DNA from: Diploschistes diacapsis
Taxonomy: Eukaryota
Length of the DNA stretch: 56,081 bases
Direction: 5' to 3'
NCBI GenBank assembly: GCA_023645945.1
Contig: JALAIB010000005.1
Coordinates: 1-56,081, forward strand
Under the pieces are notes generated by a model, which was not told the DNA's origin, did not search any database, and saw nothing but the letters and a program-made list of their open reading frames with translations. A program made the translations under genes and the position numbers. Positions 142 through 45,579 of this stretch are shown piece by piece. The first letter of the stretch is position 1; every line of letters begins with the position of its first letter.

Positions 142-4457
<4,316 letters not shown>

Positions 4458-6594: not shown

Positions 6595-9500
6595 CAACAA
6601 CACAGGCAATTTATTCTTAATAGTAGCGTATCCTTCACCATAATTTATTTTTGTTATAGATTTAAACCCTTTTAAAGTTCACCATGGTAAGCCTTTTGGA
6701 AATCTTCTTTACTTACAGATTCAGATAAAGCATTATTAAATTTTATAGTGGTTTTATTATCTTTATCTTCTATACAATATGTTTTATTACCTAAAAAATA
6801 AGCCTCTTTAATGTTATGCACCAATTTGAATTTTCCTATTTCATTACCAACCAAGTCATTGTTTAACGGTTTATCTGTGACAATGTTATCTATATCGCTA
6901 TAATATATTTTACCTCCATTACGAAGAATATTTAATTTTACTTTGTTCATGTATACTCTTGCGTATGCTGTCACAGCAGAACTTATAGCAACTGAAACAC
7001 TCTTTAAGTTTTCTTGCAAGAAAACGTCCTTAGCGTCACTGTTTTTTAATAGATTTAGTTGTGTTTCTTTATAATCAACTTTATGATCTTCACATATATC
7101 TGCGGATATACTTGCTTCATATGTTACAAGTAATTTGTCATTTATATATTTTACATCACCTACTATTTTTCTAGTCTGTAATATTTCCTGGTATTCTTCA
7201 TTAGTTACTAATCTAGTTATAGATTTGTTTAGATTCATACCGAACCTACCTATTAAACTATTTAAAAATAATTTAGCTATATTCTTTTCTACTGTGTTTT
7301 TAGCATTAGATTTAATACTATAAAAATTATCTACGTACTTTGTAAATACGTCGTATGATCTATCAAAGTTATACCCATGTAATACATATATTTTATACCC
7401 TTCTTCATATGCAAATTTTAACTCTTCACTAAAATATCAACCTTTAATACAACCAATTGGGTTATATATACTTTTTTCTGAAAACTTTGTTGGTATTAGC
7501 CCTAAGTAGTCGTCAGTAGTCTGTATTTCACAGTAGTAAAAACCAAATAAATTATCTTTACAGTCTTGTATGCTCTTATTTATTGTGCTTACGTAAGTAC
7601 AATTTAATCCAGGCATAGGGTTTAATGCTGCATACGGGTATAGCGAATTCACGTCATAATCATATAAATCCTTTCCGTGTGGTATATATACTTCCACTAT
7701 TCCCCCATAATAACTTTCTTTTATATCGCTGTAAACAGATTTTTTATTTATTAAAGGTATATTATTTTGATAGAATTTCTTTAAATATATAGCCATAGCT
7801 AGACTTGATATTGTATAATAATCTTTTACTTCTACACCATAATATGTACGTATGTACTCCATAAAAATCTTCATTATTTCATATAGACTTTTCAAATCAC
7901 CCTCTAAATACTTTATTGTTTCATCTTTAGTATTTCAGTTCTTAACTCTCTGTTCTTCTCCCATCATTGCGTCATCAAGATCTATACCAATGTTTTCATA
8001 CTCCTCTGCACTTATATTATCAAAATAGTGTTTACCAGGCTTTACACCACTATAGAAAAGCGTTTTATCACTTACAAATTCATAAGGAAACAGACCTTTT
8101 ATAACACTCGGCTTATATCTTTCACAAAGTTCAGATAATTTATTTGTCAAAATATTATAAGAGTCTACTATTTTAATTTTGTATCTTTTCTTATATGTTT
8201 TATTGGGATCTTTACCTTTGTAATAAAACGTCTTTCAAACTACTAAACATATAATTTTACCATCTCTAACAATAGGTTCATATTGATAAACATCAGGATT
8301 TTTTTCACATAAAGAAACTACAATACGTAGTAAGAAAGCTACGTCAAATTTGGCAAAGTTATGTACATAGAAAACATAATTATTATATGTTTATTTAAGC
8401 ATATCATTAAGACAATTTATTATTATCGCGTCTGAATCTAAAGACTGATCTATATAAGAAGTTTTTATTCCAAAAAGGTCTCTTTGTTCAGGATCAGCAT
8501 AAAAACCTGTCGTATAAACTTTTAATATATTATCTTTATTAAGATACATTTCAAAATCAAGAGTACCAAATTTATAAATAGCGTCACCTTTTTTTAAAGC
8601 TGTTTTAGGGTTTATAGACTTAAACTGCTGACAAATCTCTTTAGCAACTAGTTCATTTTTTATAAAGTATAAAGTTACATTTCCTGTTGTTCTATAAAAA
8701 CTATCTTGATCTTGTTTTTCATCTACTACACTACTTCTTTTATCTCCGTCTACGTAGTATATATCAATTTCGTTTACGTCAGGTAAGATGCTTTTCACAG
8801 TAGTTATCATAATATTATCTTTATCCATAGATTCATAAAAATCTACATCTCTTGTAAAACCTTTAAAATCCTCATAATAATCCTTTACACGCTCAGCGAA
8901 ATTTATTCTTTCACTACTTTTAAGTATTATATACTTTACTAGTCCATCTACTACAACTTTTTCTAATTTTACTCCAAAATGATTAATATCTGATGTTATA
9001 GGTAAAAAACTTAAACTAGTATTTAGTTTAGATACATTAACTAAATCTTTATGCTGTTTTAAAGGTACTGAGAGTTTCTTACGTTTTACTATAGTATCCG
9101 TGTAATATACTCTTGAAAAGATAAATTGAATACCTATAACTTGATTATACTGAATATCATATTTTTCTAGCGTATCAAGCAATCTATTAGACACCTTTAA
9201 TAAAATATTTTCCATCTTTAAAAATAAACTATTTTTATCCCTATATTGAAAAAAGAATTGGTGTCCTAAAGTTTTTCATTCTGTAACAGATCAATTATTA
9301 CTTTTACTAGTTGTTTCTATTTTATATTGTATTCTTAATAACAAGGAGTACCTTGTGTCTATATCACATTTTACAAAATAATCATACACCAAAGCTTTAT
9401 CATCTAGAGAATCTGGACTAAGATAAAAGATGTTTTCTCTAACCCTTTTTCCAATAGAAGCGACAGAAGAGACATACCGAGTGAAAAGTCGATTTTTTTT

Positions 9501-9599
9501 TTTTATGTTAAATATCATAGAATTAATTATTATTAAATAAAAGGACGTTAAAACATTAGATTTAGGCCCTAACAGCCACCGGATAAGCATAAAAGCCAA
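6595..9599 (-). pseudogene. dpoB: Linear-plasmid-type (protein-primed) family B DNA polymerase, decayed
   Basis: One frame with TGA=Trp: ExoI TLDFEMY, ExoII FYVHNFAKFD, motif A YDVNSLYP, motif B KLFLNSLIGRFGM, motif C altered to YSDIDN; internal TAA at 8391-8393; frameshift or truncation near 6672. Confidence 0.92.
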
Positions 9600-10152
9600 A
9601 CTTTCTCAGCGTTTTCCACCCAGTATAGAAAAAATTTGCTTATTGATTTTACATTCCAAAAAGGTCCTCTTCTCTATATCGTACCGCTTTTTAAATCTAT
9701 ATAACCCGTTGACCTTTTTGGGATACAAGGAGTCATTTAAAAACAAAGGATACGGAAGGATTAGAACAACATTGTGAGGAAGCTTATAATAGGGGTAATA
9801 TGTTTGAGGAGGAACGTGAAAAGATGGTAAAGGGGTCCATAAAGGAAGAAAACGAATGGATGCGTAAATGTGCTGAATGTCACAATAGTGATAATATTTT
9901 ATCTCAAGAAGCTTCTGAAAAGCAAAAAGAGCAATAATTTTTAGTATTATGCTGATCCCAACCTAGAACAACTTAGTTATAGGAATCTCTAGGATTAATT
10001 TTGATATATACCAGATATAAGTATAGTCATTTAGTGATAATTTATCTAAATACATTTGGTACCTATTGAACCCTTGACACTCTATTATATTTAACAGTAA
10101 AGTTAAGCCTGGTACAGTGTAAATATAACTACTGTATTCTTAATTTAGTAAA

Positions 10153-14144: not shown

Positions 14145-17100
14145 TGTATCTAGCCATAATAACTTTACCTTTATTAGGATCAATAACATCTGGTTTCTTT
14201 GGTAGAAAAATAGGAATAACAGGATCACAAATAATTACATGTAGTTCAGTGATAATTACAACATTACTAGCTATAATTGCCTTTACAGAAGTAGGGTTAA
14301 ACAATATACCAGTTTCCATAAATCTATTTAAATGAGTAGATTCGGAATCACTGAATGTATTATGAGGTTTCAACTTTGATTCTTTAACAGTTTCAATGTT
14401 AATTCCGGTGTTAATAGTATCATCCTTAGTGCATGTATATTCTATAGGTTATATGAGTCACGATCCTCGAGGTCGCGTTAGGGGAAAACGCGTCTATGGG
14501 GATAAATTGTCAAACTCCGGGGATATCCTAAAGCTTAAGGTACCAAGCTGTAGTCGAAAGGCTATTAGTGGCTGAAGTAATTACTCAGGTATGGTAACAA
14601 GCCTTAAGATGAGTGAAAACGAAATGGACAATCGCGGATCTAAATTCCTATGCATACATAGGATAAAAGAGCAAAGAGTAGACGGCAGTTGATCTATTAA
14701 ACCACATTTAATGGATTTAAGGTGTACTCTAGGGGGTTTCGAAAGGAACGGAGGTATAAAACTCGGTTTCAACATACAACAGTGTTGAAATTCCCACGTC
14801 AAAAACCCATCTAAGCAATTCGAAAAAAAAAATTTTTCAACCTATAATTCTACTATTGTAAATCCTGGAGTCTGATCTGGTCTAATAGATGGTGAGGGTT
14901 CATTTAGTGTGATAGTAGATAGAAATAAAAAGCGTAAATTAGGTTGACGTGTTCATATTAAATTTCAAATAGGTTTACACACTAAAGACCTTAACTTATT
15001 ATATCTATTACAACAATACTTGTCTGGTATCGGTTCTATACATTTAGCTCTAAACCGAGAGATAGTTAATTATTCAATAGATTCTATTGAAGATTTAAAT
15101 AAACTTATTCTTCATTTAGAAAAATATCCGTTGTTAAGTCAAAAAGCCGCGGATTTTTTTTTATTTAAACAAGTGGTAAACCTTGTAAACAATAAAGCTC
15201 ATCTAACTGTTGAAGGTTTAAAGCAAATATTAAATATAAAAGCATCTATGAATTTAGGTTTATCTGACATGTTAAAATCAGAATTTGCTGGATATACTCC
15301 AGTTGAAAGACCTATAATAAATTCTGATAATGTAAATTTAAACCCTCATTGAATTTCAGGATTTGTTAGCGCTGAGGGGAATTTTGATGTTCGTATACCA
15401 TCGAGCAATAGTAAATTAGGTTATCGAGTACAATTGAGATTTAGAATAACTCAACATAGTAGAGATAATAAATTAATGGAGAAAATAGTTGAATATTTTG
15501 GGTCAGGAAAGATATACAAATATGGTGGTAAGTCTGCTGTTAGTTTAACAATAGTTGACTTTACTGATATTACCAATATAATAATACCATTTTTTAATGA
15601 AAATGCTATAATTGGTATAAAACTCTATGATTATCTTGATTGATGTAAAATTCATAGTTTAATGATTAATCGTTCTCATTTTACGGTTGAGGGTATAAAT
15701 TCTATTAGAAAGATAAAATCTGGTATGAATATGGGTAGAAGTTTTGAAGATAAATAACCATTGTTAGTATCAAACACCCAATAAATCAATTGCAGGATAA
15801 ATTTGACTTAAATGCATAATCAAAGATTCTTTAGTTATTTAAGCTTATTTACTTTTATGATGATAATTTTGGTAACTGCAAACAATTATTTATTAATGTT
15901 TGTAGGTTGAGAAGGTGTGGGTATTTGTTCATACTTATTAGTCAGCTTCTGATTTACTAGAATAGCAGCTAATCAAAGTTCAATATCTGCAATGTTAACT
16001 AATAGAGTGGGTGATTGCTTACTAACTATAGGTATGTTTACTATACTGTGATCTTGTGGTAACATAGATTATAGTACAGTATTTTCACTAGCACCTTATA
16101 TAAATGAAAATATTATAACAATGATAGGAATATGTTTATTAATAGGTGCTATGGCTAAAAGTTCTCAAATAGGTCTTCACGTTTGATTACCTATGGCTAT
16201 GGAGGGTCCAACTCCTGTATCTGCATTAATACACGCTGCTACTATGGTAACCGCCGGTGTATATTTATTAATGCGTTCCTCACCTTTAATAGAATACAGT
16301 TCAACTGTATTATTGTTATGTTTATGAATAGGTGCTATTACTACTGTGTTTAGCTCTTTAATAGGGTTATTCCAACAAGACATAAAAAAAGTTATAGCTT
16401 ATTCCACTATGAGCCAACTTGGAATGATGGTTATAGCTGTAGGTTTATCATCTTATAACATAGCATTATTCCATTTAGTTAATCATGCTTTTTATAAAGC
16501 ACTATTGTTCTTAGGTGCAGGTGCAGTTATTCACGCTGTAGCTGATAACCAAGATTTCAGGAAATATGGGGCACTAAAACAATTTTTACCTTTAACATAT
16601 TCAGTTATGCTAATAGCTTCTCTTAGTTTAGTAGCATTCCCATTCATGACAGGATTTTATAGTAAAGATTTTATATTAGAATCTTCTTATGGTCAATTCT
16701 ACTTTTCGGGTATAGCAGTGTACTTTGTGGCAGTAATTGCTGCTATGTTTACCACTTTATATTCCATAAAGGTTTTATACTTGACCTTTATAGCTAATCC
16801 TAATGGGCCTATTACTAATTATAAATTTGCCCATGAAGGTAACATATATATGAGTTTACCTTTAATAATATTAGCTATTTTTTCCGTCTTTTTTGGTTAT
16901 ATTACTAAAGACATGTTTATAGGGCTAGGTTCTAGCTTTTTCTCTGATAATAGTTTATTTATTCACCCTTTGAACGAAATATTGCTTAACACAGAATTTG
17001 CAGTGCCAATATTTTATAAACTATTGCCTTTATTATTAACTGTATCTTTAAGTATTTTATCTTTAGTTATAAGTGAATATTTTTCTAGCTGAGTTATTAA

Positions 17101-18373
17101 ATTTAAATTTAGTTATATTGGTTATAATATATTTAGTTTTTTTAATCAACGTTTTTTAATTGAACTTTTATATAACAGGTATATTACAGATTTAATATTT
17201 AAATTAGGAGGACAAACTACCAAGGTGTTAGACAAAGGTTCTATAGAATTAATAGGGCCTTATGGTTTAGAAAAGGGATTAATAAATATGAGTAAAAATC
17301 TAAGTAAACTAGATACAGGTGTAGTTACATCTTATGCTTTATATATCTTAATAGGTTTAATATCTTATATTATAATACCTTCAATCTCAACTTATGATAA
17401 TTCATTGTTGTTATTAATAATAATATCAGTATTTATCAATATAAATAAATCTATTACTAGTAGCAATAATCATAATACTTTAAATAGTTCGTTATTGTTA
17501 AGCTCTTTTGGAACTGGTTTAACTAAAATTCTAACTAGAATTTTTTCTAAAATAACAATTGCATCCCTTCTAGCGGGTTGTATTTCGGTTTTTATAATTA
17601 CAATGATTAAATTCAAACTAGACATACCAAACATACCCACAGACTTTTACAACGTATTACTCACTAGTTATAGCTTTTTTGCGTGTAGATTATTCCTTTG
17701 AGGCTTGATAGAATACTTATTAGAAAACTTTAATATCAAAAATTTAAATGTAAAAGATTTTCTAGATTGTTTACATTATTTTTTTAATGTACTGCGTGGA
17801 GTACTGAGTGGACAAAATAAAGCTACTATGGGACATATGGACAATGAAGAGCTACCTCTGAGCAATAAAAACAAAGAGCTACCTTTGAGCAAGAAAGGTA
17901 TGACATTAAATATGGACAACATTTTTAATCATCCAACCGGATGACGTCCCCCTAAAACTGGTGTATGTCCAACTGTGGGCCATGATCCTATTCAATATCC
18001 TGTAAATAAGGATGAATCAAATAACCCAAGAGCGGATATGTTAACTAATTCGGTAGTACCAAGCGAAATGGAAAAAAACAGGATTATAGGGGTGTTAAAA
18101 CAGTTTGAGGGAAGGGATGCTAAACCTGCACTACTATCAATATTTACAGTATGAGAACTTAATTGATTGGGCAGAATGTTATATGCAGCTGCCGGTAATC
18201 ATAATCCATCCTACCACACATTAAAGAATGATGTTTTAGCTTTAAATGGTAATTTTGGTTTACCAGATACTGGTTTAATTACATCAGAAATCCAACATAG
18301 GTACGTAGTAGATGGTGTAATTTCCAAAAGGATGCTTAGATTTTTAGAGGAGAATAAACATTTGAAGGTGTAA
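14144..18373 (+). CDS. nad5: NADH dehydrogenase subunit 5; exons 14144-14467 and 15815-18373; about 960 aa including a ~300-aa C-terminal extension
   Basis: [52 protein letters not shown]; no TAA or TAG after the usual end (~17450) until 18371. Confidence 0.95.
14468..15814 (+). mobile_element. nad5 group I intron (position 324) with in-frame LAGLIDADG ORF 14468-15757
   Basis: U|...G| boundaries; [10 protein letters not shown] and [11 protein letters not shown] motifs in an uninterrupted frame. Confidence 0.9.
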
Positions 18374-27246: not shown

Positions 27247-28844
27247 TTATGTAATTAGATAAGGGTTGTTTAAAGTTGGAATATTTTTACTTAGTACTCA
27301 ATCAATTGTAGGTATTTTATATTCAATACTTTCATAGATAAAAGTTCTTTTATCTGCTATTCATTCTATATCATCACCATATGCATTTAATATAGATTCT
27401 ATGATATTTTTATCAAATGTTCTTAGATAAGGTTCATCTGAGTATAATTTTTCATATACACTTTTCAACAATGATATTAATGACCCCATTTTGTCCGCAG
27501 TTGTAGCAAAACAATCGTGTATTGCATAGAAACTATAGTTATATTGATACTCTTTTTTAAATGATAAAAATAATAATGTAAGTGCTGAAGCATCCAGTGA
27601 ATGAATTAAATTAGGCATAAGAGCAACACATTGTTTTCATTTGTCGTATACATTAGAAACACTTCTAGTTAAATTTAATGTAGTTCTACTATAACTAAAA
27701 GGTTTAATTTTTACAGTTTCTGATTTTAAGTAACTTTGAGTTACTAATAAACCACTCCCTGAATTTAAAACTATAGGTAGATTTAAAATATTGTGAATCT
27801 CTGCTACAGTTGTTAAGTAATCTCTTAACTTTTTAATATTTTCAAAGTCTACATTTATTATAGTCATAATAGTTTTAACTAAGACTGTAACATCCTTATT
27901 ATTAATTTTACTACTATTTTTAATATATCATACCATTTTTTTATCGTCTACTCCTGTATCTTCATATTATTTATCATAATTAGATAAAGAATCCTTAATA
28001 TACAATTCCATAGAATATCTTGTTGCATTATATGGAATAGTCATTATAACACTTTTAATATCGCTACGTTCTCAGACAAACTCATATAGTCTTGAGTAAT
28101 TTTCATGATAAGCGTCTGATGTATCACCCAATTTTGATTTTAATATATCAATTAACCTTATTATAATATAATTGTAAAAATCATTTGGTTGTTTATCTTT
28201 GTCAGATGTATTTAAGTTAACAATATCATATAACTTAGTTTCATGAGATAATAGAGATAAGTGTTGGAAACCGTTACAACTAGCGTCTAATTGTATAGGT
28301 AAAGATGTTTTAAATTCATTAGTATTAAAATCTTTTAAACAATCATAATATTTTTTTAATTCTAGACAAAAAGCCAGGAATAGATGCTTATTTTTAGCGT
28401 TTTGTAGTAAACCACTTTCTTCAAAATTATAAATTTTATCTTTATTATCTTCTACTCAGGATATTATTTTCACATATGATTTTTTATCTAGACCATTACC
28501 ATAACAATTAGCACCATATATATATAGATAGTTTATTTGATTTTTATTATCTTTATGAATTGTTGATTCATTGCTAAATAATAATAAACTTTTAGATAAA
28601 TCATTACTTTGGTAATTAAAATAATCGGGTACACAATATACTCTACCTCTATTATCTAATCTAACAGGAAAATATATTCTATATAGATTTATATATATAT
28701 TCGCTATGTTTAATATATTAAATTCTAGTACATACTTACTCATTTCAGATTTATATTTTTTCTCAAAATAGCTTGAAGATCATTTATTTAACTTGACATC
28801 AAAATTCTCTTTTTTTATATTTTCTATCTGCTTTTCATCAATAA
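27247..28844 (-). pseudogene. rpo: Plasmid-type single-subunit (T7-like) RNA polymerase, C-terminal half
   Basis: FPVRLDNRGRVY, PIQLDASCNGFQH, RSDIKSVIMTIPYN, PNLIHSLDAS, AIHDCF in one frame; internal TAA at 27967-27969. Confidence 0.92.
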
Positions 28845-29268: not shown

Positions 29269-29339
29269 AAGAGTATAGTTTAATGGTAAAATAGGAAGCT
29301 TCAAACTTCAAATTCTCGGTTCGAATCTGAGTACTCTTG
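29269..29339 (+). tRNA. trnW: tRNA-Trp(UCA)
   Basis: AAGAGTA/TACTCTT acceptor, CTTCAAA loop; supports TGA=Trp. Confidence 0.92.
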
Positions 29340-29346
29340 AGATAAA

Positions 29347-29390
29347 GGTTTTTTAATTTAAAGGGCAAAGTGCGTTTTGGATAAAAACGA
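29347..29390 (+). pseudogene. Degenerate 5' half of trnI
   Basis: GGTTTTTTAATTTAAAGGGCAAAGTGCGTTTTGGATAA resembles the 5' half of trnI at 31310. Confidence 0.55.
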
Positions 29391-29669: not shown

Positions 29670-30359
29670 ATGAAATATTTTAACATAAAATCTATAACTT
29701 AGGCTCTGCACATAATTTTTGACGGTAACACACAAGAACATACTACAGGTACACCTGCTAATACTATTTTAAGTTTTTATTTTAAACCAGAATATGGTTT
29801 CGCTATTACACCTGAACAAATACAACCTATAAGTAATATAAAACCATATTTTTCAATTGAAAAAGTTGATGGAAATAAACTTGTACCTCATGTATTTGTA
29901 TAAATTAAAGGTCTTATTAAACCTAATTTTAATGATATTTTGGATCAATTATACGATACTATATTGGAAACTGTTGATTTTAACGGTAACTTGTTTTCAA
30001 GTTTTGTAATAGCTATGAAAGGATCTAAAATAGCTTTTTTTCAATTTTATTCTTTTATTAGTTTATTGGATGAGAATGATATAGCCCATTATAATGGATT
30101 TATACCTCTTAATCAGTTATTAACTCAAGAGGGAGCATACAAGATTAACGGTTTAAATCCTTTCGAGTATAATTTGTATACAGGAAAATATAGTGATATA
30201 CTTACTAAAGCTAATTTACTTAAACATATAAACGTGGAATCTACAAAAAATATACCTCATCCTCTATGAGATTTATTAAATGAAAATCATAAAGAGCATG
30301 TACACAATTTATTTGTGATGGTAAGAGATAATATACCTGGTTCAGATATAAATAAGTAA
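29670..30359 (+). pseudogene. Free-standing ~229-codon ORF with PD-(D/E)XK nuclease-like motif, inactivated
   Basis: One frame with TAG at 29700 and TAA at 29901; reads ITPEQ...KP[Y]FSIEK...PHVFV[*]IK...LDQL, consistent with an ancestral PD...EIK. Confidence 0.6.
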
Positions 30360-30363
30360 AATA

Positions 30364-30437
30364 GAGAGAATTGACCGTGGGGGTTGAGGTGGTAAGCTTT
30401 AAACTAACGGTTATCAGTTCGAATCTGAGTACTCTTG
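30364..30437 (+). pseudogene. Chimeric tRNA-like sequence (trnS-UGA 5' half plus trnW 3' half) with UUA anticodon
   Basis: 5' AGAGAATTGACCG..AGGTGGT.AGCTT matches 32585; 3' GTTCGAATCTGAGTACTCTTG matches 29319-29339; loop CTTTAAA. Confidence 0.65.
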
Positions 30438-30445
30438 GTACTAAA

Positions 30446-30484
30446 GGTTCTTTAACTTAATATGTAAAGTGCGTCCTTGATAAG
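30446..30484 (+). pseudogene. 5' half of trnI(GAU)
   Basis: GGTTCTTTAACTTAATATGTAAAGTGCGTCCTTGATAAG, ending just after the anticodon loop. Confidence 0.7.
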
Positions 30485-30520
30485 TATGTTATCCAAGTTG
30501 CTTTAAATGAATTAAAAATA

Positions 30521-31319
30521 ATGATTAAAATAAAAAGAATCTTTTGTACTTCTAGTCCCACACACATATATAATAACAATTGTTCCCAGTATTTCTCCCC
30601 CGCCCCGCCCGTTTTTACAGAACAAGTAAAACCTATAAAAATTTTCCAAGATTCCTATTTAAATAAATTAGATATTGTTAAAGACTATAAAAACAACACT
30701 ATTATTTATATGTGATTTAAGAAAATTACCGGTCAAGTGTACGTGGGAAGTAGCTTAAACAAAAGTAACCGCCTATACTCATATTATTGGGGTTCGAAAT
30801 TACATAGCACCAAAAAAAGTAGAATTTATAATAGTATTAATAAATATAGAGATAGCAATTTTTCTCTAGCTATTTTGGAAGTCTGTGACGATAAGGATGG
30901 TAAATGATATTTAGATAAAGAAACGTTTTTTATTAAATGAGCTATGAAAATGTACGGTGACAAAGTTTTAAACATATTAACTGGAGGGGGATCGAGTACG
31001 GGATACACTGATACATCAGACGCAAAAATAAAAATGAGTAAATTAAAAGCAGGTATAAGGCATAATATGTATGGAAAAAGGAAAAAATCATACTTAAAAA
31101 ACACGTAACACCATAAGTAATTCCATGGGAAACAGGGTTAGCTATAGCGTAAGTGTTTTGGTGAAAAAGATTGGATCTAATGATGAGTTTATGTTTAGTT
31201 CTATAAAAGACGCAGCGAAATATATTGACACTTCTAGCACTACTATAAAAAGATATTTGGACAGCGGTAAATTATATAAAAGTTTATATGTTATAAGTAA
31301 GTTATATAAGATTCCTTAA
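30521..31319 (+). pseudogene. Free-standing GIY-YIG endonuclease, frameshifted near 31100
   Basis: IIYMW..ITGQVYVGSS...NRLYSY, NFSLAILE, LNILTGGGSSTGY, C-terminal FSSIKDAAKYI; stop codon overlaps the trnI 5' end. Confidence 0.82.
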
Positions 31320-31381
31320 CTTAATGGGTAAAGTGCGTTCTTGATAAGGATGAGATTAGTGTTCAAATCACTAAGGAATTA
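31310..31381 (+). tRNA. trnI: tRNA-Ile(GAU)
   Basis: GATTCCT/AGGAATT acceptor, TTGATAA loop. Confidence 0.9.
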
Positions 31382-31758
31382 TCTATTTAACTAATTTTTG
31401 TTATTAAATAGAATTACATTATTAATGAATAAACACTCTGAACACTGAATTACTGAAATCTTATCTGTCTGCAGTAGCGAGTTTCCGTAAAGCGATGGTT
31501 TGGTATCGTAATATCCTAGTTAGTATGCGTGTGACTGGTATACGTTTTAATAAACTAGTTGGACCTACTAAGAAACAAACTTAGACTGGTTGATAATACT
31601 ACGCTTGCAACACAGTGTAACTATATGTCATAAAAATCCATGCTCTTTTAAATATATCACTTTACGTATATAATTAATGTGATTACTATATGGACAGATT
31701 TAATCCGAAACTCGGGTATGTATACTATATATACATGTGCTAATTGGATTAAATATAA

Positions 31759-32526
31759 ATGAATAAAAATGAAAAAAAAAAAATGCAAAGTATATTAATT
31801 GGGGTAAATAAAGCCTGGCATCTACCTTCTCTGCCCTCGCTCGTAGCCGTTTTCCATAATCATCCTTTGGTGAGAATAGTGAGAGTACTTGGTGGTGTAT
31901 CGATATTGTTGGTATTAGGAAAATTTAAACTAGCCCAAACTTTATTTTACGTTGTATTCCCTTTAGCAGCTATACAATTTACATATATTATATTGATAAA
32001 TGCGATTAAATTTATATATCTAATATACCTATGAAAAAATGGAAAATTAGAAGTAATAAATTCACCCTTAGATAGAATAGCTACCTTTAGCGTGAACTTG
32101 TTAGCATGTATTAAAGGTACGTGTGTATTGGGCTTGAGCGGTGTAACCGCCCTCGGAATGGGCCAGGGCATTGGTGAACTGTTAACTAGTTATGGTTGGG
32201 ACCCCATATTTAGAGATACACTAGGTAAAGGTCTGAACACAGCGCTCAATGGATTAGGGTTTTAAAATCCTAATAAAGATATAACTAAATACCAAAATGA
32301 TTTAAATAGTTTAAGATACAGCTATAATCAACTTTCTACTTTAAATAAGGAGTTATAAGAGCTAGAATCTGTAAGCAAAAACAGTGGTCTAGATAACTCT
32401 GAGTTGATTAAATAAATAAAAAAGGATATCGGGGAAAGAATCGAAAAGGAAAAGCTAAAAATTATTAAATCTAATAGTAAAATATTATCTGAACTAGAAG
32501 CAAAAAATGCTTTTGGGAAAAAATAA
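31759..32526 (+). pseudogene. Hypothetical membrane protein of a type recurrent in fungal mtDNA and plasmids; three in-frame TAA in the C-terminal part
   Basis: AWHLPSLP...HPLVRIVRVLGGVS...KLEVINSPLDRIAT...CIKGTC; stops at 32263, 32356, 32413. Confidence 0.65.
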
Positions 32527-32584
32527 TCGTATTACGTCAAAATTAAATAACTAACTGAAAGACTGAAAAACTAAAAGACTTAAA

Positions 32585-34269: not shown

Positions 34270-34386
34270 GATGCTCCCAGATCTTTTAATAAAGATCTAA
34301 TAAATCATGCTTTTAAAGATCCAAGTCAAAATCTGATGGATGCTCCCAGATCTTTTAATCCAGATCTAATAAACAATGCTTTTAAA
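34249..34386 (+). repeat. 69-bp tandem duplication at the nad6/orphan ORF junction
   Basis: GATCCAA.TCAAAA.CTG[TAG/ATG]GATGCTCCCAGATCTTTTAAT..AGATCTAATAAA..ATGCTTTTAAA, two copies. Confidence 0.9.
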
Positions 34387-35547
34387 AATCCTATAAAATC
34401 TACACCATCTAATGAGTCTATCCAGTCTTCTTTAGATTGTATTAAAAATATGCAAGAAAAATGTAATACATTTAAACCTGCAAGATGTTTAACTACTGAC
34501 AATGTAAGTGAGGCAACGGACTATGTAAATAATACTCTAACGCTTTTCCATAGTTATTACCAAGTAATTGATTATAGATATTTAGAATATATAAGTATGA
34601 TGAAATTATATCTACTAATTTTCGTTTTACTTGTTTCTTTTTTTTTACCTATTCTTACTAGAGCATTTGACGGCCTATGCAACATATTGATGGATATTAT
34701 AAGAAGATTGGTCCGTTCAATTATGTTAATATTAAATAGAGTGTATCCTATTCTCTTGAGAATACTAAATAGAATACTAAATAGAATGCTAAATAGATTA
34801 ATGAGAGGTTATCGATTAATTCAACGTTTACCTAGAGTACCTCCTCTTCTAACGCAAAATAGAAATATCTTTGGAAGAATAGCTGTTAGACTAAGATGAT
34901 ATTATGGATTATGAAGAGTGCGAGTGGCTGTAAACTATTGAACAGAAAGGAATCGTGTTATGTTTGTGGATAATTTACTGAATAGTTATCCTGGAACGTA
35001 TGGCGAGCTAGGAATGCTGATAAGAGCTAGCGGTTATAACCCTACAAGAGAACAAGCTAGAATTTTATTTGATAGTGATGGCTTGAGGAATTATCGTAAC
35101 TATTTAATGACCTATAGACGTATACCATGAGGATTAGAACCATTTAATTTCTCGCCACAGATAATTCGTACTCAACGGGGGCTACTGCCAACCTACACAA
35201 GGCTATTAGATATTTTAAATAGCATTACTCGTCAAGCAGTGAGTAATCAGCTATTACAAGCTGAAAATATTGCTCTAAATATAGAACAATATGCCGTATT
35301 ACGTCATGAAATGGCAGTAAGTCGTAGAGTTGTGAACTCTAATGTAGATCTTTATATGTTTGTAACAGGTGGTTATTGAACAGCGGATAATAGTTATGTT
35401 CTGCCCGCAGAGGATGTACTGACATTATTAAGCGAATTGCAAACCCTGCAAGATTTTTGACTACTATATGTAGAATATTTAAGAGCAAAAATTGCATTTA
35501 TGATTGCTCTTGAGAGAACAAGAAGATCAACATCATGATGATTTTAG
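34336..35547 (+). CDS. Orphan 403-aa ORF in frame with nad6 (one TM helix, Arg-rich amphipathic segment)
   Basis: Uninterrupted with TGA=Trp from ATG 34336 to TAG 35545-35547. Confidence 0.75.
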
Positions 35548-38700: not shown

Positions 38701-41700
38701 AATGAAAAACAATTATAGTGTAGAACGACGTAACTTCAGAAGTAATTTCAATAAAGGCAAAAAATTGTCTAAATAAACCTTATAAAAACTAAAAGATAAA
38801 AGTTTAAATAGAAAAAAGATAACTTACACTAAAAAAAGTTTATTAGCTATGAAGAAAAGATCTAAAGCTATAATATTATACAATTTAGATAGAACTGTGT
38901 ATGGTTATTTTAATAGTATAACAGAAGCAGCAAATATTATAAATTGTGGTGATAAAACAATAAGAAGAGCTTTAAAGACTGATAAAAAGATATTAAAAGG
39001 AAAGTATATTGTAAATTATAATAAAGAATTAAATTATAGTCCCATGAGTTTAAATTTCTATGCAATTTTTATAAAAAAATAGAAATAAAGTGGAACAGTA
39101 TGACAGTACTGTTGAAAAAAAAAATAGATTAATTTGTTTTTTTGGCGATGTTAGTGAAAACGGTTAACTATTATGATAAAGACCGTCGGTTATATAAATG
39201 ATCGCTACAGACTGGGTCACTAATGGGTGACTGAAATGTTGCTTAATGTACAGTCGGAACTTTTAGCTATAAAGCTAATAGAATATACGAATTCAAAGTT
39301 ATTCTAGCTTAATTTATATTATTTCTTAAGTAAGTTTGTATGTATTACCATATGGTCAAATGTCACTATGAGGTTTTATTGTAATGCCTCAAATGTATGT
39401 TTTATATTCTATTCTATTTATATCTTTCCAATTTATTGGTTATTCAGAAAAGTTGACTAGACTTAAAGGTATATACAGAGTAGGGCCTCACAATAAAGAT
39501 GTTGTATGTATTATATTTGGGTCTCTGTTAGGAGATGCTCACGCTGAAAAAAGACAACAAGGTAATGGAACTAGAGTTACTTTCTACCAAGAACATTCTC
39601 ATGTTGAATATATGTTTTATTTACATAATTTATTATCTAACTTAGGATATTGTAAACCAAAACAACCTACAGTAGGAACAAGATTGGGTATTAAAGGTAA
39701 AGTAAGAAAAACAGTGAGATTTGCAACTTGAGCTTATACTAGCTTTAATTGAATACATGATTTATGATATAAAGATGGTATAAAAATTGTACCTGAGTGT
39801 ATAAGTTATTATTTAACTCCCTTAGCTTTGGCTATCTGGATTATGGATGACGGAGCTAAAGTTGGTAAAGGTTTAAAGTTTTCTACAAATTCTTATAGTT
39901 ACACAGATTGTTTAACTCTTGTAAGCGCCTTAAATGCCAACTTCAGTATTAAAAGTACAATACAAAGTGCAGGTTCTGAAAATCAATATATTATATATAT
40001 TTGAAAAGAATCTATGGATAATTTAAGAAATATAGTGTATCCTTATATTATACCTGAAATGAGATATAAAATAGATTAAAAATATAATATAATAACATAC
40101 ATAGTTATATAGCTACTTTTGTAAAAAGCGTTAGTATAAATAAAGCAATATTTACTTAAAATTTATTTAGACCGCTATATAGCAACATCTATGAAAACGG
40201 TCAATAATGTTTGTTTAGCATCGAGACCGTCGGTATAGTAAAATATCGCTACAGACTGGTCCATAGATGGGTGTCTGAAATATTTATCAAAATTGATAAC
40301 TAATTATGATGCTTAATGTACAGTCGGGTTTTTCCATACTATTAAGATCGTAATAGTATGCACAAGACAATATAGACAATTATACTGCGTAGTAGTATAT
40401 ATATTGAACATGGTTTACCTATTTTAAACATTTTAGATTTAAATAATTCTAAAAGTCTTATAGGCACAGTATAGGTAAATTGAAAAAGTGGCAACAGTTA
40501 TAACTAACCTTATGAGTGCTATACCGTGAGTAGGACAAGATATAGTAGAGTCAATAAAAGATATAAAATAAAATTTATGTTAGTAAAATCTATATTACCC
40601 ACAATAGGTAATATAAACAAAAATGGGTAAAAAAAAGTAAAAAATTTAAGACTAGACAAAAAAGAATACACCCCCCCCATCTTTTATAGCACTATTAGTT
40701 GGTATCATAGATGGTGATGGTTACATTGAAAGAACTAAACCTACTAAAGGGTTCATAACTATTAAACTTGTTATTTTAGTACATTTGGAGGATATTTATA
40801 CATTGGAATATATACATTCTATTTTAAAGATAGGTATTATATCTATATATAAGGATAATAGAAGTCCTACTTGTAAGTTAATATTTAATAAAACTGACTT
40901 ATAAGAAGTATTATTTCCGTTGTTTATATATCATAAAACATATTTTATTACTAACACTGGAAAGGACCAATTCAATCTAGCTATGTATATATTTAAAAAT
41001 GATATAAAATTATATAAACAAATTTCTAATAAACAAGATATACCCGCAGGTTTTGAACTATGTAAAACACCATTAGATTACACAAAGTTATCTAAAAATG
41101 AATAGTAGGGTTTACAGTTTCTGAAGGTTCTTTTTTTGTTATAAGCTTTGAAAATAATATTTAATACAAATAGAAAGATAGATAATCAAAACGAATTATA
41201 TAATCAGTTTAGTGTAAGTTCTAAATTAGATATAGAAACCGTTATGGATTTTTTTTTTCTTACTCCTTCGGAAGGGCTTACATCCTTTAATAGGTTAAAA
41301 AAACGTACAATATCTAAAGTGATTAGAGCTTTTACGTAATAGTTACCGCTATAAAAGTCTTAATTTTCCTAACAATTTATCAGAAAGTTTTACTACACAT
41401 AATTTATTTAAAATGGGCTCCTTAGAATAGTAATATTCTATAGGCAAATGGGGAGAATTGCAAAAACACCCTACTATATTCCACCGTTTATAGGGTTATT
41501 TGCATCGGAGCTTAATTCGGTACTATTTAATAAAATTATTAAATGAATTAAGAACGTTCAACGACTAACGAGTGAGTAATACCAACAATAAGCTCGACAC
41601 GAAAACCCCACAACAAAGTTTTTTGGTTGAAGACATAGTCTAAACATTAGATAAACTAATGAAAATAAGCATTAAAAACTTATAAAATTTTTGTCATATG

Positions 41701-44395: not shown

Positions 44396-45579
44396 TTATG
44401 TAAGACTATCAATTAATATACAATAACTGTCTGATATAGTTAACTTGTGTTTATCCTTGCTAATAGTAATTCTAATTGTTTCATCATTTAACAGATAACC
44501 ACCTAAGGATTGTTTTGAATAATCTTTTGGTTCGCATATCATAAGTAATTTACTTGGTAAAGTAAAAATATCACTACTGTTCTTGGGACGTGCTACAGAA
44601 TTTTCAGGAACAAACAGAACATAATGCTTTTCATAAGAAGATGTACTATCAGTATTAGCTACTAACTTTTTCTTAATCATTTCACAATGCTCCAGTATTT
44701 CAATAATTTTACCACCTAACTCAGCATAATAATCATCTTCCACTAAAATAGATAAATCTATATTATTTTCGTTTAACATGGTAAGTCATGATCTGTAGGT
44801 GATTTCTTTACCTGTATGCTTGATGTGTGCGTTTTTTAAATGATTCATATATCTATTAAACATTTTTTTACCTATCTTAATACAAACATTTAACATATTA
44901 TAATACTTATCACTAGCAGAATTTGTATTTTGGTATGTATAAACTAATATAAAATGTAATAAAGATAAATTATACATAAAATCAACACCAATCATGTTAA
45001 CAATGTTATTAGTTAAAATTGCTTTGTCTTTAACTACTTTAGATCTAATTTTTTTATTAACAGCTTGTTCGGATCCAGCCAATAGTTTGCTTAAACTATT
45101 TTTTAATAAAAACTCCTTACTTATAATAAAATTAGTTTAACTACCACTTAGATACTGAGTATTTACACCACCTACCATATAATTTTTACTGCTGTTACTG
45201 AAAATAACATCAAATTGGTCTAAAATTAAAGATTCTATAGTCTTTTAAATTCTTCATTATAAGCAAATCTATCTTGATTTGTTAATAAAGTAATTTGGTT
45301 AGTTAAATGAGAAAGAAACTTAGATGTATGTTTATTTTCAGATATACTATCTGTGTTATTATTATTTTCAGATCCTGAATTGTATAACACTAACTCTTTA
45401 GTATTAGACTTTGTACTAGTAGAAAAAGGGTAAAACTGTACAGAATTATCGCTAGCCTTACCAAAGTAAGAGAATAACCGAATAAAAACAGGTAAGTGAG
45501 TAGTACCGTAGCCATAACAGAAAACTGGTAAACGAATTCTAGTTATATTATTGTTGTTGTTTTTCATTATTTTCTGCAT
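44396..45579 (-). pseudogene. rpo: Plasmid-type RNA polymerase, N-terminal part, frameshifted
   Basis: LGGKIIEILEHCEMI and KLLMICEPKDY...LGGYLLND, typical of mitochondrial plasmid RNA polymerases. Confidence 0.8.

Follow-up and report, generated by a model that had tools for sequence, protein, structure and literature searches.

In the consulted part of a 2021 review of organellar introns, LAGLIDADG and GIY-YIG enzymes are given as the most abundant of six classes of homing endonucleases in fungal mitochondrial genomes (PMC8393795), and a further article, in the part consulted, treats the homing endonucleases of fungal mitochondria as either LAGLIDADG or GIY-YIG proteins (PMC7487136). For the PD-(D/E)XK nuclease superfamily, the consulted part of a census from 2012 names two homing families, I-Ssp6803I (PF11645) and the Vsr-like I-Bth0305I, both of which are prokaryotic (PMC3424549). 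In this study, we analyzed a decayed gene for a PD-(D/E)XK-type nuclease in mitochondrial DNA of Diploschistes diacapsis. The gene is located at positions 29670–30359 of the plus strand of a stretch of 56,081 nucleotides (GenBank assembly GCA_023645945.1, contig JALAIB010000005.1, positions 1 to 56,081 of the forward strand), in the following referred to as the window. It belongs to a family of proteins of about 230 amino acids which, in our assessment, is probably a selfish, mobile endonuclease gene of fungal mitochondrial genomes.

The niche and the presumed mechanism of this family are those of homing endonuclease genes, and the superfamily is already known to contain homing enzymes. The family itself, its host range in fungal mitochondria and its intron homes appear to be undescribed; searching the literature on PD-(D/E)XK in combination with fungal mitochondria, mitogenomes or homing, a search with most subscription journals outside its reach, yielded no description of the family. 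As annotation follows the LAGLIDADG/GIY-YIG view, the open reading frames (ORFs) of this family have been left as “hypothetical protein”.

The window represents fungal-type mitochondrial DNA, with genetic code 4, 23 tRNA genes, the usual respiratory genes and numerous LAGLIDADG and GIY-YIG intron ORFs. Sequencing runs containing this stretch are labelled as lichen, rock and glacier-forefield metagenomes or carry coded organism names. Under code 4, the ORF reads in one frame, exactly as an earlier note on this DNA had translated it: 229 codons at 29670–30356 are followed by a stop codon at 30357–30359. A tblastn comparison with the intact relative P0006 aligned residues 1–231 to 29670–30356 with an E-value of 2e-73, and a search of 5.8 billion proteins returned 60 relatives at E ≤ 0.01, most of them 229–231 amino acids in length. 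Based on these two results, the frame is far beyond chance.

Nevertheless, the window copy is a pseudogene with no remaining activity. A first in-frame stop (TAG, codon 11, 29700–29702) lies within the N-terminal helix of the predicted dimer interface (residues 1–15; see below). Codon 60 (29847–29849) is TAT, so that Tyr takes the place of the family's catalytic Asp in the P-D motif, and at codon 78 (29901–29903) a TAA stop replaces the Glu of E-x-K. Lys 80 (AAA, 29907–29909) is kept as the sole remaining catalytic residue, and close to the C-terminus, one codon of the conserved stretch PHPHIW is gone. With its catalytic D...(D/E)-x-K no longer intact, the copy is a dead member of the family. 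Using tblastn, no second copy or relic of the ORF was found in the window, including 31382–32584, the place at which a scenario of tandem duplication would put a relic.

An exhaustive profile search retrieved 353 clusters (50% identity) at E ≤ 0.001, 200 of them at E ≤ 1e-10. Asp61, Glu79 and Lys81 of P0006, corresponding to codons 60, 78 and 80 of the window copy, are invariant in all 42 aligned homologues, so the expectation that homologues carry Asp and Glu at the positions lost here was confirmed. Glu24, His25, Thr48, Gln51, Gln94, Lys118 and His214 are likewise invariant in this alignment. Across the stored full-length proteins of the family, the Asp is found in 130/135, the Glu in 129/135 and the Lys in 131/135. 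Four full-length proteins (P0101, P0110, P0111 and P0193) are without Asp, Glu and Lys, showing P-V, I/S/T and Q/I at these positions, and this subgroup may be inactive or repurposed.

The family is not represented by a model in Pfam. Searching Pfam-A with hmmscan at E ≤ 10 assigned no family to the whole window frame or to its two pieces, the named relatives of the window ORF, which lack any Pfam domain, are all “hypothetical protein”, and for 28 distant relatives at E ≤ 0.01 no match was obtained in 27 cases, the exception being a sub-threshold match to Kbp-5. A profile search of the sequences in the PDB gave no match at E ≤ 10. Family members stand alone at about 230 amino acids, while longer ones reach up to 583 amino acids and have no Pfam domains either; fusions to helicase, methyltransferase or specificity modules, as in HSDR_N-type proteins, were not seen. 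Some members show a nuclear-looking composition and N-terminal extensions with the catalytic motif kept. Judged by their amino-acid composition, these distant members are probably nuclear. A search starting from the nuclear-type member P0142 brought just three further relatives. Neighbours in the ESM Atlas are eukaryotic clusters without names, comprising 67–106 members from Ascomycota and Basidiomycota, and the only Pfam-named neighbour, a cluster annotated as HSDR_N_2 (0.86), is to be taken as a lead only.

For structural comparison, AlphaFold2 was run on the family alignment with the intact protein P0006 as target, resulting in a model with a pLDDT of 87.1 and a pTM of 0.87. The model comprises a helix (residues 24–38), three strands (45–49, 62–68 and 71–81), a second helix (88–104) and two further strands (111–118 and 121–128), with Asp61 where the second strand begins, Glu79 and Lys81 in the third strand and Gln94 in the following helix. 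This is the canonical PD-(D/E)XK arrangement with an alpha-beta-beta-beta-alpha-beta core. The best VIA-align match among 48,161 chains was the nuclease domain of DrdV (7lo5), with residues 3–144 matching at Z 11.7 and a root-mean-square deviation of 2.7 over 136 aligned positions, followed by the mitoribosomal protein mL37 (Z 9.4), BpuSI (3s1s, Z 9.3), the mitoribosomal protein mS30 (Z 9.0) and two HsdR subunits (3h1t and 2w00, Z 8.1 and 6.9). The majority of the 50 matches listed are restriction-fold proteins, and NucC, Can2 and the Holliday-junction resolvase Hjc are found among them as well. Foldseek gave weak matches to the PDB, the best again being the nuclease domain of DrdV (E 3.5e-3) and none reaching E ≤ 0.001; the fold was therefore assigned from VIA-align together with motif and topology. 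Taken together, motif and predicted restriction-endonuclease fold agree with the earlier note, which had proposed a PD-(D/E)XK-type nuclease.

Living copies most likely form a homodimer, according to the structure prediction. The homodimer score was 0.71, compared to 0.00 for the best control, with a pLDDT of 65–66 for the partner and contacts agreeing to at least 88% between runs; the mark applied to this score was reached by 21/30 proteins solved as pairs and by 0/23 solved as single chains. The predicted interface involves residues 1–15, 25–49 and 65–72.

The closest structural matches are thus the nuclease domains at the N-terminus of Type IIL, IIG and I restriction enzymes, with which the family shares the residue order E...PD...ExK...Q. 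The Gln may correspond to the QxxxY motif of HsdR. However, these are domains of large, multi-domain bacterial enzymes in which specificity is supplied by other domains or subunits, whereas the members described here are free proteins of 230 amino acids from eukaryotic organelles and possess an additional C-terminal region of about 100 residues. At the sequence level, no match between the family and these domains was obtained. The similarity to I-Ssp6803I is of a different kind. Both are small, stand-alone proteins of the same superfamily, are encoded in or beside introns and are presumed to be oligomers. In contrast to this likeness, the family has no Pfam match to PF11645 at E ≤ 10. I-Ssp6803I is not among the 50 structural matches listed for P0006 either, which says little in itself. 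Furthermore, I-Ssp6803I is encoded in an intron of a cyanobacterial tRNA-fMet gene, while the present family is found in fungal mitochondria, in introns of the cytochrome b gene (cob) and in spacers, with no tRNA intron involved. The analogy to I-Ssp6803I at a tRNA site, as drawn in the earlier note, was therefore not supported, since neither a PF11645 match nor an interrupted tRNA gene was found; the kinship is at the level of the superfamily only.

Several of these findings would also fit a nuclease with a host function, for instance in recombination or repair of mitochondrial DNA, junction resolution, intron maturation or RNA processing, which became dispensable, was moved by ordinary rearrangement and decayed in the window lineage. 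The motif is strongly conserved across the 135 proteins, including the probably nuclear members with N-terminal extensions, the ESM Atlas clusters mentioned above span both Ascomycota and Basidiomycota, and the structural matches include the Holliday-junction resolvases Hjc and RecU besides mL37 and mS30. The genomic distribution of the gene argues against this explanation. It was assessed for 31 loci from one scan of metagenome contigs, with the window copy counted separately, and for each locus the ORF was placed using tRNA scans, tblastn with the mitochondrial proteins of the window and motifs of the cob exons.

In eight of these loci (L001–L003, L005–L007, L014 and L015), and probably also in L004, the ORF lies in a cob intron located after codon 143 (G143 in window numbering), between exon sequences ending in ...GQMSLWG and starting with ATVITN.... 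Two further loci (L019 and L026) carry it in a different cob intron after codon 132 (Y132), the intron of L026 additionally holding a GIY-YIG ORF. The remaining copies are free-standing. They are found directly upstream of cob (L013), in the nad3–nad1 spacer or upstream of nad1 (L018, L030 and L011/L012), after cox2 (L021 and L031), between trnH and trnM (L008), before trnH (L017, L027 and L028) and between trnM and trnL (L022 and L023). Within the conserved tRNA block G-D-S-W-I-S-P, the ORF is located before G in L024, between S and W in L016/L020, between W and I in the window and between I and S in L009/L010, and the same block is present without the ORF in L015. As these four positions belong to one syntenic block, a change in gene order is no explanation there. 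Overall, the gene occupies two cob introns and at least ten different intergenic spacers, and the W-I spacer lacks the ORF in L016, L024 and L015 as well as in contigs of more divergent organisms from runs X2 and X3, a comparison that is made between taxa. The ORF thus resides in introns or stands free, at sites that differ between genomes, which is the distribution to be expected for a homing endonuclease gene.

A maximum-likelihood tree was calculated for 26 locus copies and the window copy, omitting L016, L020, L029, L030 and L031 as too decayed or partial. Location clusters on this tree, requiring 14 changes compared to a minimum of 13 and a mean of 18.5 after shuffling. Near relatives nonetheless occupy different sites, as in the group of L017, L024 and L018 and in that of L014, L013 and L011. 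For the window copy, the tree gives the main clade of cob-143 copies as its sister group (support 82/87, not starred).

The cob intron after codon 143 offers a direct comparison between the window and its relatives. In the window, this intron (39379–40496, plus strand, delimited by exon motifs) contains an ORF at 39336–40079 that matches the Pfam family LAGLIDADG_2 with an E-value of 2.4e-53 and is fused to the upstream exon. The 3' core of the intron can be aligned by blastn over 142–147 nt at 76–86% identity to the corresponding introns of L003, L014 and L015, which hold the PD-(D/E)XK ORF in place of LAGLIDADG_2. The same intron with another occupant is a classical sign of an ORF moving independently of its intron. 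The ORF of L003 has its own ATG and is unfused, with a stop two codons past the upstream exon. Rfam models of group I introns gave no match in the introns of L003, L014, L015 and L026 or in the cob-143 intron of the window, a result by which group I is not excluded. The position after codon 143 is presumably also the one that is discussed in connection with target-site changes for strobilurins.

Comparable to LAGLIDADG and GIY-YIG genes, the family occupies cob introns or free-standing sites in a patchy manner and is often decayed, although its fold and catalytic motif are unrelated to theirs; the LAGLIDADG and GIY-YIG ORFs of the window match Pfam clearly, whereas the PD-(D/E)XK frame does not. 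In-frame stops or frameshifts were detected in 8/31 loci (L008, L016, L020, L022, L023, L029, L030 and L031), and substitutions affect the catalytic motif in L027 and L031 (Asp to Asn), L029 (Glu to Val) and L010 (Pro to Ala). The coexistence of intact, conserved copies with many broken ones matches what is predicted for the cycle of invasion, decay and loss of selfish endonuclease genes. A copy shared by L016 (629–1542) and L020 has the C-terminal half of a GIY-YIG domain fused in frame at residue ~52 of the PD-(D/E)XK gene, so that the first ~50 codons are replaced, and an A-rich insertion subsequently shifts the frame; here, one endonuclease gene appears to have overwritten the start of another.

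Such a patchy occurrence in two introns and at least ten intergenic spacers, with four positions in a single tRNA block, is difficult to reconcile with a decayed host nuclease. Optional introns would be an unexpected place for a housekeeping gene, 8/31 copies are broken, and the homologous intron of the window holds a LAGLIDADG gene instead. We consequently regard the host-nuclease explanation as rather unlikely. The occurrence in introns and free-standing, at variable sites and with frequent decay, corresponds to the way in which a mobile nuclease gene behaves in genomes, and a selfish endonuclease gene remains the preferred reading. The earlier note had inferred a mobile nuclease that lost both of its catalytic residues: the residue loss and a distribution like that of mobile genes are borne out, while DNA cleavage, site specificity and homing are properties that we infer for the family.

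The history of the lesions could be traced using near-identical contigs (about 99% identity) of other samples, from runs X2, X3 and X9, aligned to the window. The X2 contig differs at 27 letters over 3378 aligned nt and that of X9 at 33 letters over 4135 nt. At position 29901, all three runs have G (GAA, Glu) where the window has T, and at position 29847, G (GAT, Asp) is found in X3 and X9, while X2 and the window share T. This is in agreement with the proposal of two single G-to-T changes at these positions that destroyed Asp and Glu. The database protein P0075, which falls into one 90% cluster with the 139-aa 3' ORF of the window, has the sequence KPDFSIEK...HAFVEIKG, with a frameshift in its own N-terminal part. 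Based on these two independent lines, the losses of Asp and Glu are recent G-to-T changes. Since X2 has T at 29847 but G at 29901, the change of Asp60 to Tyr would have preceded that of Glu78 to a stop. The TAG at codon 11 shows no variant among the listed differences to these contigs.

A third G-to-T change close by, at 29839, converting Arg57 to Ile, is of the window type only. Between 28800 and 32700 of the window, T for G is the commonest class of difference to the three other samples (7–9 places per run), which points to an excess of G-to-T mutations in the window lineage, as far as such an alignment can indicate. In L023, the same Glu codon as in the window was independently changed from GAA to TAA. 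A targeted inactivation of the gene through the double loss of catalytic residues was considered and rejected, as T for G is the commonest class and L023 repeats the stop at the Glu codon; for the same reasons, both losses look like ordinary G-to-T drift in an already dead gene.

The surroundings of the window copy had suggested a link to tRNA genes. An intact trnW(uca) precedes the ORF at 29269–29339 (plus strand, like all features of this cluster; found by ARAGORN, which printed it as SeC under the bacterial code, and by Rfam with 58.2 bits). It is followed by a weak stretch resembling the 5' part of trnI at 29345–29389 (copy A), which is 73% identical to copy B in a repeat search and gave no blastn-short match at E ≤ 0.01. 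Directly behind the ORF, a chimeric pseudo-tRNA (30363–30436) joins the 5' half of trnS(uga) to the 3' end of trnW at a shared AAGCTT. By blastn-short, 30365–30399 corresponds to nt 1–35 of trnS(uga) at 86% and 30417–30437 to nt 51–71 of trnW at 100%, and the Rfam tRNA score is just 21.6 bits (E 0.35). The 5' half of trnI is then repeated at 30444–30488 (copy B, 87% identical to trnI in register, with nt 7–39, i.e. 33 nt, at 91%), followed by a GIY-YIG gene in two pieces (30521–31319; GIY-YIG at 30521–31108, E 2e-6, and NUMOD1 at 31125–31319, E 1.8e-5), the second of which overlaps the intact trnI(gau) at 31310–31381 (ARAGORN and Rfam). Direct repeats of ~95 nt, each consisting of the trnW 3' end and the trnI 5' half (29296–29389 and 30394–30488), bracket the ORF. 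The flanking trnW/trnI duplicates described previously are real, but the chimeric nature of the pseudo-tRNA, composed of trnS(uga) and trnW, had been missed.

These repeats would be expected if the gene were a homing element targeting the trnW–trnI site, in analogy to I-Ssp6803I, with its insertion creating the tRNA halves, and copies located less than 300 nt from a tRNA gene in L008, L016/L020, L017, L022–L024, L027 and L028 point in the same direction. However, tRNA genes flank most spacers, so that nearness weighs little, and a tRNA target could not be upheld on a broader basis. The tRNA genes of the window and of the 31 loci are all uninterrupted, and no duplicated tRNA pieces surround the PD-(D/E)XK ORF in any of 19 other loci scanned (13 of which have tRNA genes in reach), contrary to the expectation that homologues lie beside duplicated tRNA halves. 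The duplicates seen elsewhere, in L009 and L016/L020, consist of 25–27 nt from the 3' end of trnS(uga) and flank GIY-YIG genes. In the window as well, a GIY-YIG gene follows immediately after trnI copy B and extends into the intact trnI. The piece behind the ORF starts with the 5' half of trnS(uga), which fits an older order I-ORF-S, as found in L009/L010, from which unequal recombination and an insertion of the GIY-YIG gene into trnI would have produced the present arrangement. Together with the lack of a Pfam match, this renders homing into a trnW–trnI site distinctly improbable.

GIY-YIG genes beside tRNA genes with a duplicated piece on the far side were observed in the window (30521–31319), in L009 (11069–12517) and in L016 (1860–3446), and the arrangement suggests a GIY-YIG lineage that may insert at tRNA genes. 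Further tRNA duplicates were noted in two other contexts. In L009 (9036–9204) and L010, a trnW(cca) adjoins a trnW(uca), the two sharing 92.6% identity over 68 nt, and in L012, trnR(ucu) and trnR(ccu) at 8214–8286 and 9398–9470 are 94.5% identical; these pairs with differing anticodons appear to be anticodon shifts after duplication.

The window also contains genes of the type carried by mitochondrial plasmids. A DNA polymerase B gene (dpoB) is located at 6672–8150 (minus strand; Pfam DNA_pol_B_2, E 2.5e-83), adjoined by an ORF at 8391–9746 (minus strand) that has no Pfam match, and two pieces of an RNA polymerase gene (RNA_pol) are found at 27247–28743 (minus strand), about 1 kb upstream of the tRNA cluster. 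In addition, PDDExK domains have been reported in mitochondrial linear plasmids, according to the consulted part of one article (PMC10583447). The nuclease gene could accordingly be part of an integrated linear plasmid, having arrived together with the polymerase genes. We consider this very improbable, as the gene is adjacent to dpoB or rpo in 0/31 loci, the smallest distance being ~3.3 kb, with the genes on opposite strands (L009/L010), and ten loci have it within cob introns. In the window, too, it lies on the strand opposite to the plasmid genes, with five tRNA genes between.

Under the preferred reading of a selfish endonuclease gene, a homodimer using Asp61, Glu79 and Lys81 (P0006 numbering), with the conserved Glu24 and Gln94 nearby, would cut mitochondrial DNA lacking the gene, and the break would be repaired from gene-bearing mitochondrial DNA, by which the gene, alone or together with its intron, would be copied into it. 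After fixation, nothing would maintain the gene and decay would follow, the window copy being at this stage. Free-standing homing endonucleases of phages, such as Seg and Mob of T4, are GIY-YIG or HNH enzymes that home without an intron. By analogy, the intergenic copies described here would spread likewise, cutting near an empty site.

A number of observations weigh against this reading. A genome pair of the same species with and without the gene was not found, and the absence of a gene from contigs proves nothing; all four runs containing the window stretch carry the gene, and the contigs with an uninterrupted trnW–trnI site (X2 and X3) belong to other, more divergent organisms. The varied intergenic positions could partly reflect changes in mitochondrial gene order. 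The class of the cob introns is assumed from their site and their LAGLIDADG occupant. Furthermore, the C-terminal 100 residues yielded no DNA-recognition domain, the structures nearest to the model are the unspecific modules with which restriction enzymes cleave DNA, and members of nuclear composition with a kept catalytic motif leave room for a cellular function.

Considering these points, we see roughly even chances that the family constitutes a third class of fungal mitochondrial homing endonuclease gene. It would encode a dimeric PD-(D/E)XK enzyme of ~230 amino acids, unrelated at the family level to I-Ssp6803I, that resides in the cob-143 intron among other sites and stands free between tRNA genes, while its nuclear-type relatives in Ascomycota and Basidiomycota may be domesticated or independently selfish.

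Additional ORFs of the window were recorded apart from this family. A hydrophobic ORF of 168 amino acids between trnI and trnS(uga) (31759–32265), an arginine-rich ORF of 403 amino acids between nad6 and cob (34336–35547) and a minus-strand ORF of 228 amino acids (44396–45082) have no Pfam match. The ORF of the last cox1 exon (3189–4457, 422 amino acids) matches COX1 at residues 2–86 only, and that of nad5 (15812–18373) comprises 853 amino acids; both extend hundreds of codons past the conserved protein.

If confirmed, a third class of homing endonuclease gene would change the annotation of intron and intergenic ORFs in fungal mitochondrial genomes and would account for a set of orphan ORFs, in lichen-forming fungi as well as in others. 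The known natural rare-cutting enzymes would gain a compact scaffold of the restriction fold, presumably with long targets. The occupant of the cob-143 intron and its mobility are of practical interest for describing the structure of the cob gene, and the nuclear-type relatives prompt the question of the origin of such genes and of a possible domestication of any of them.

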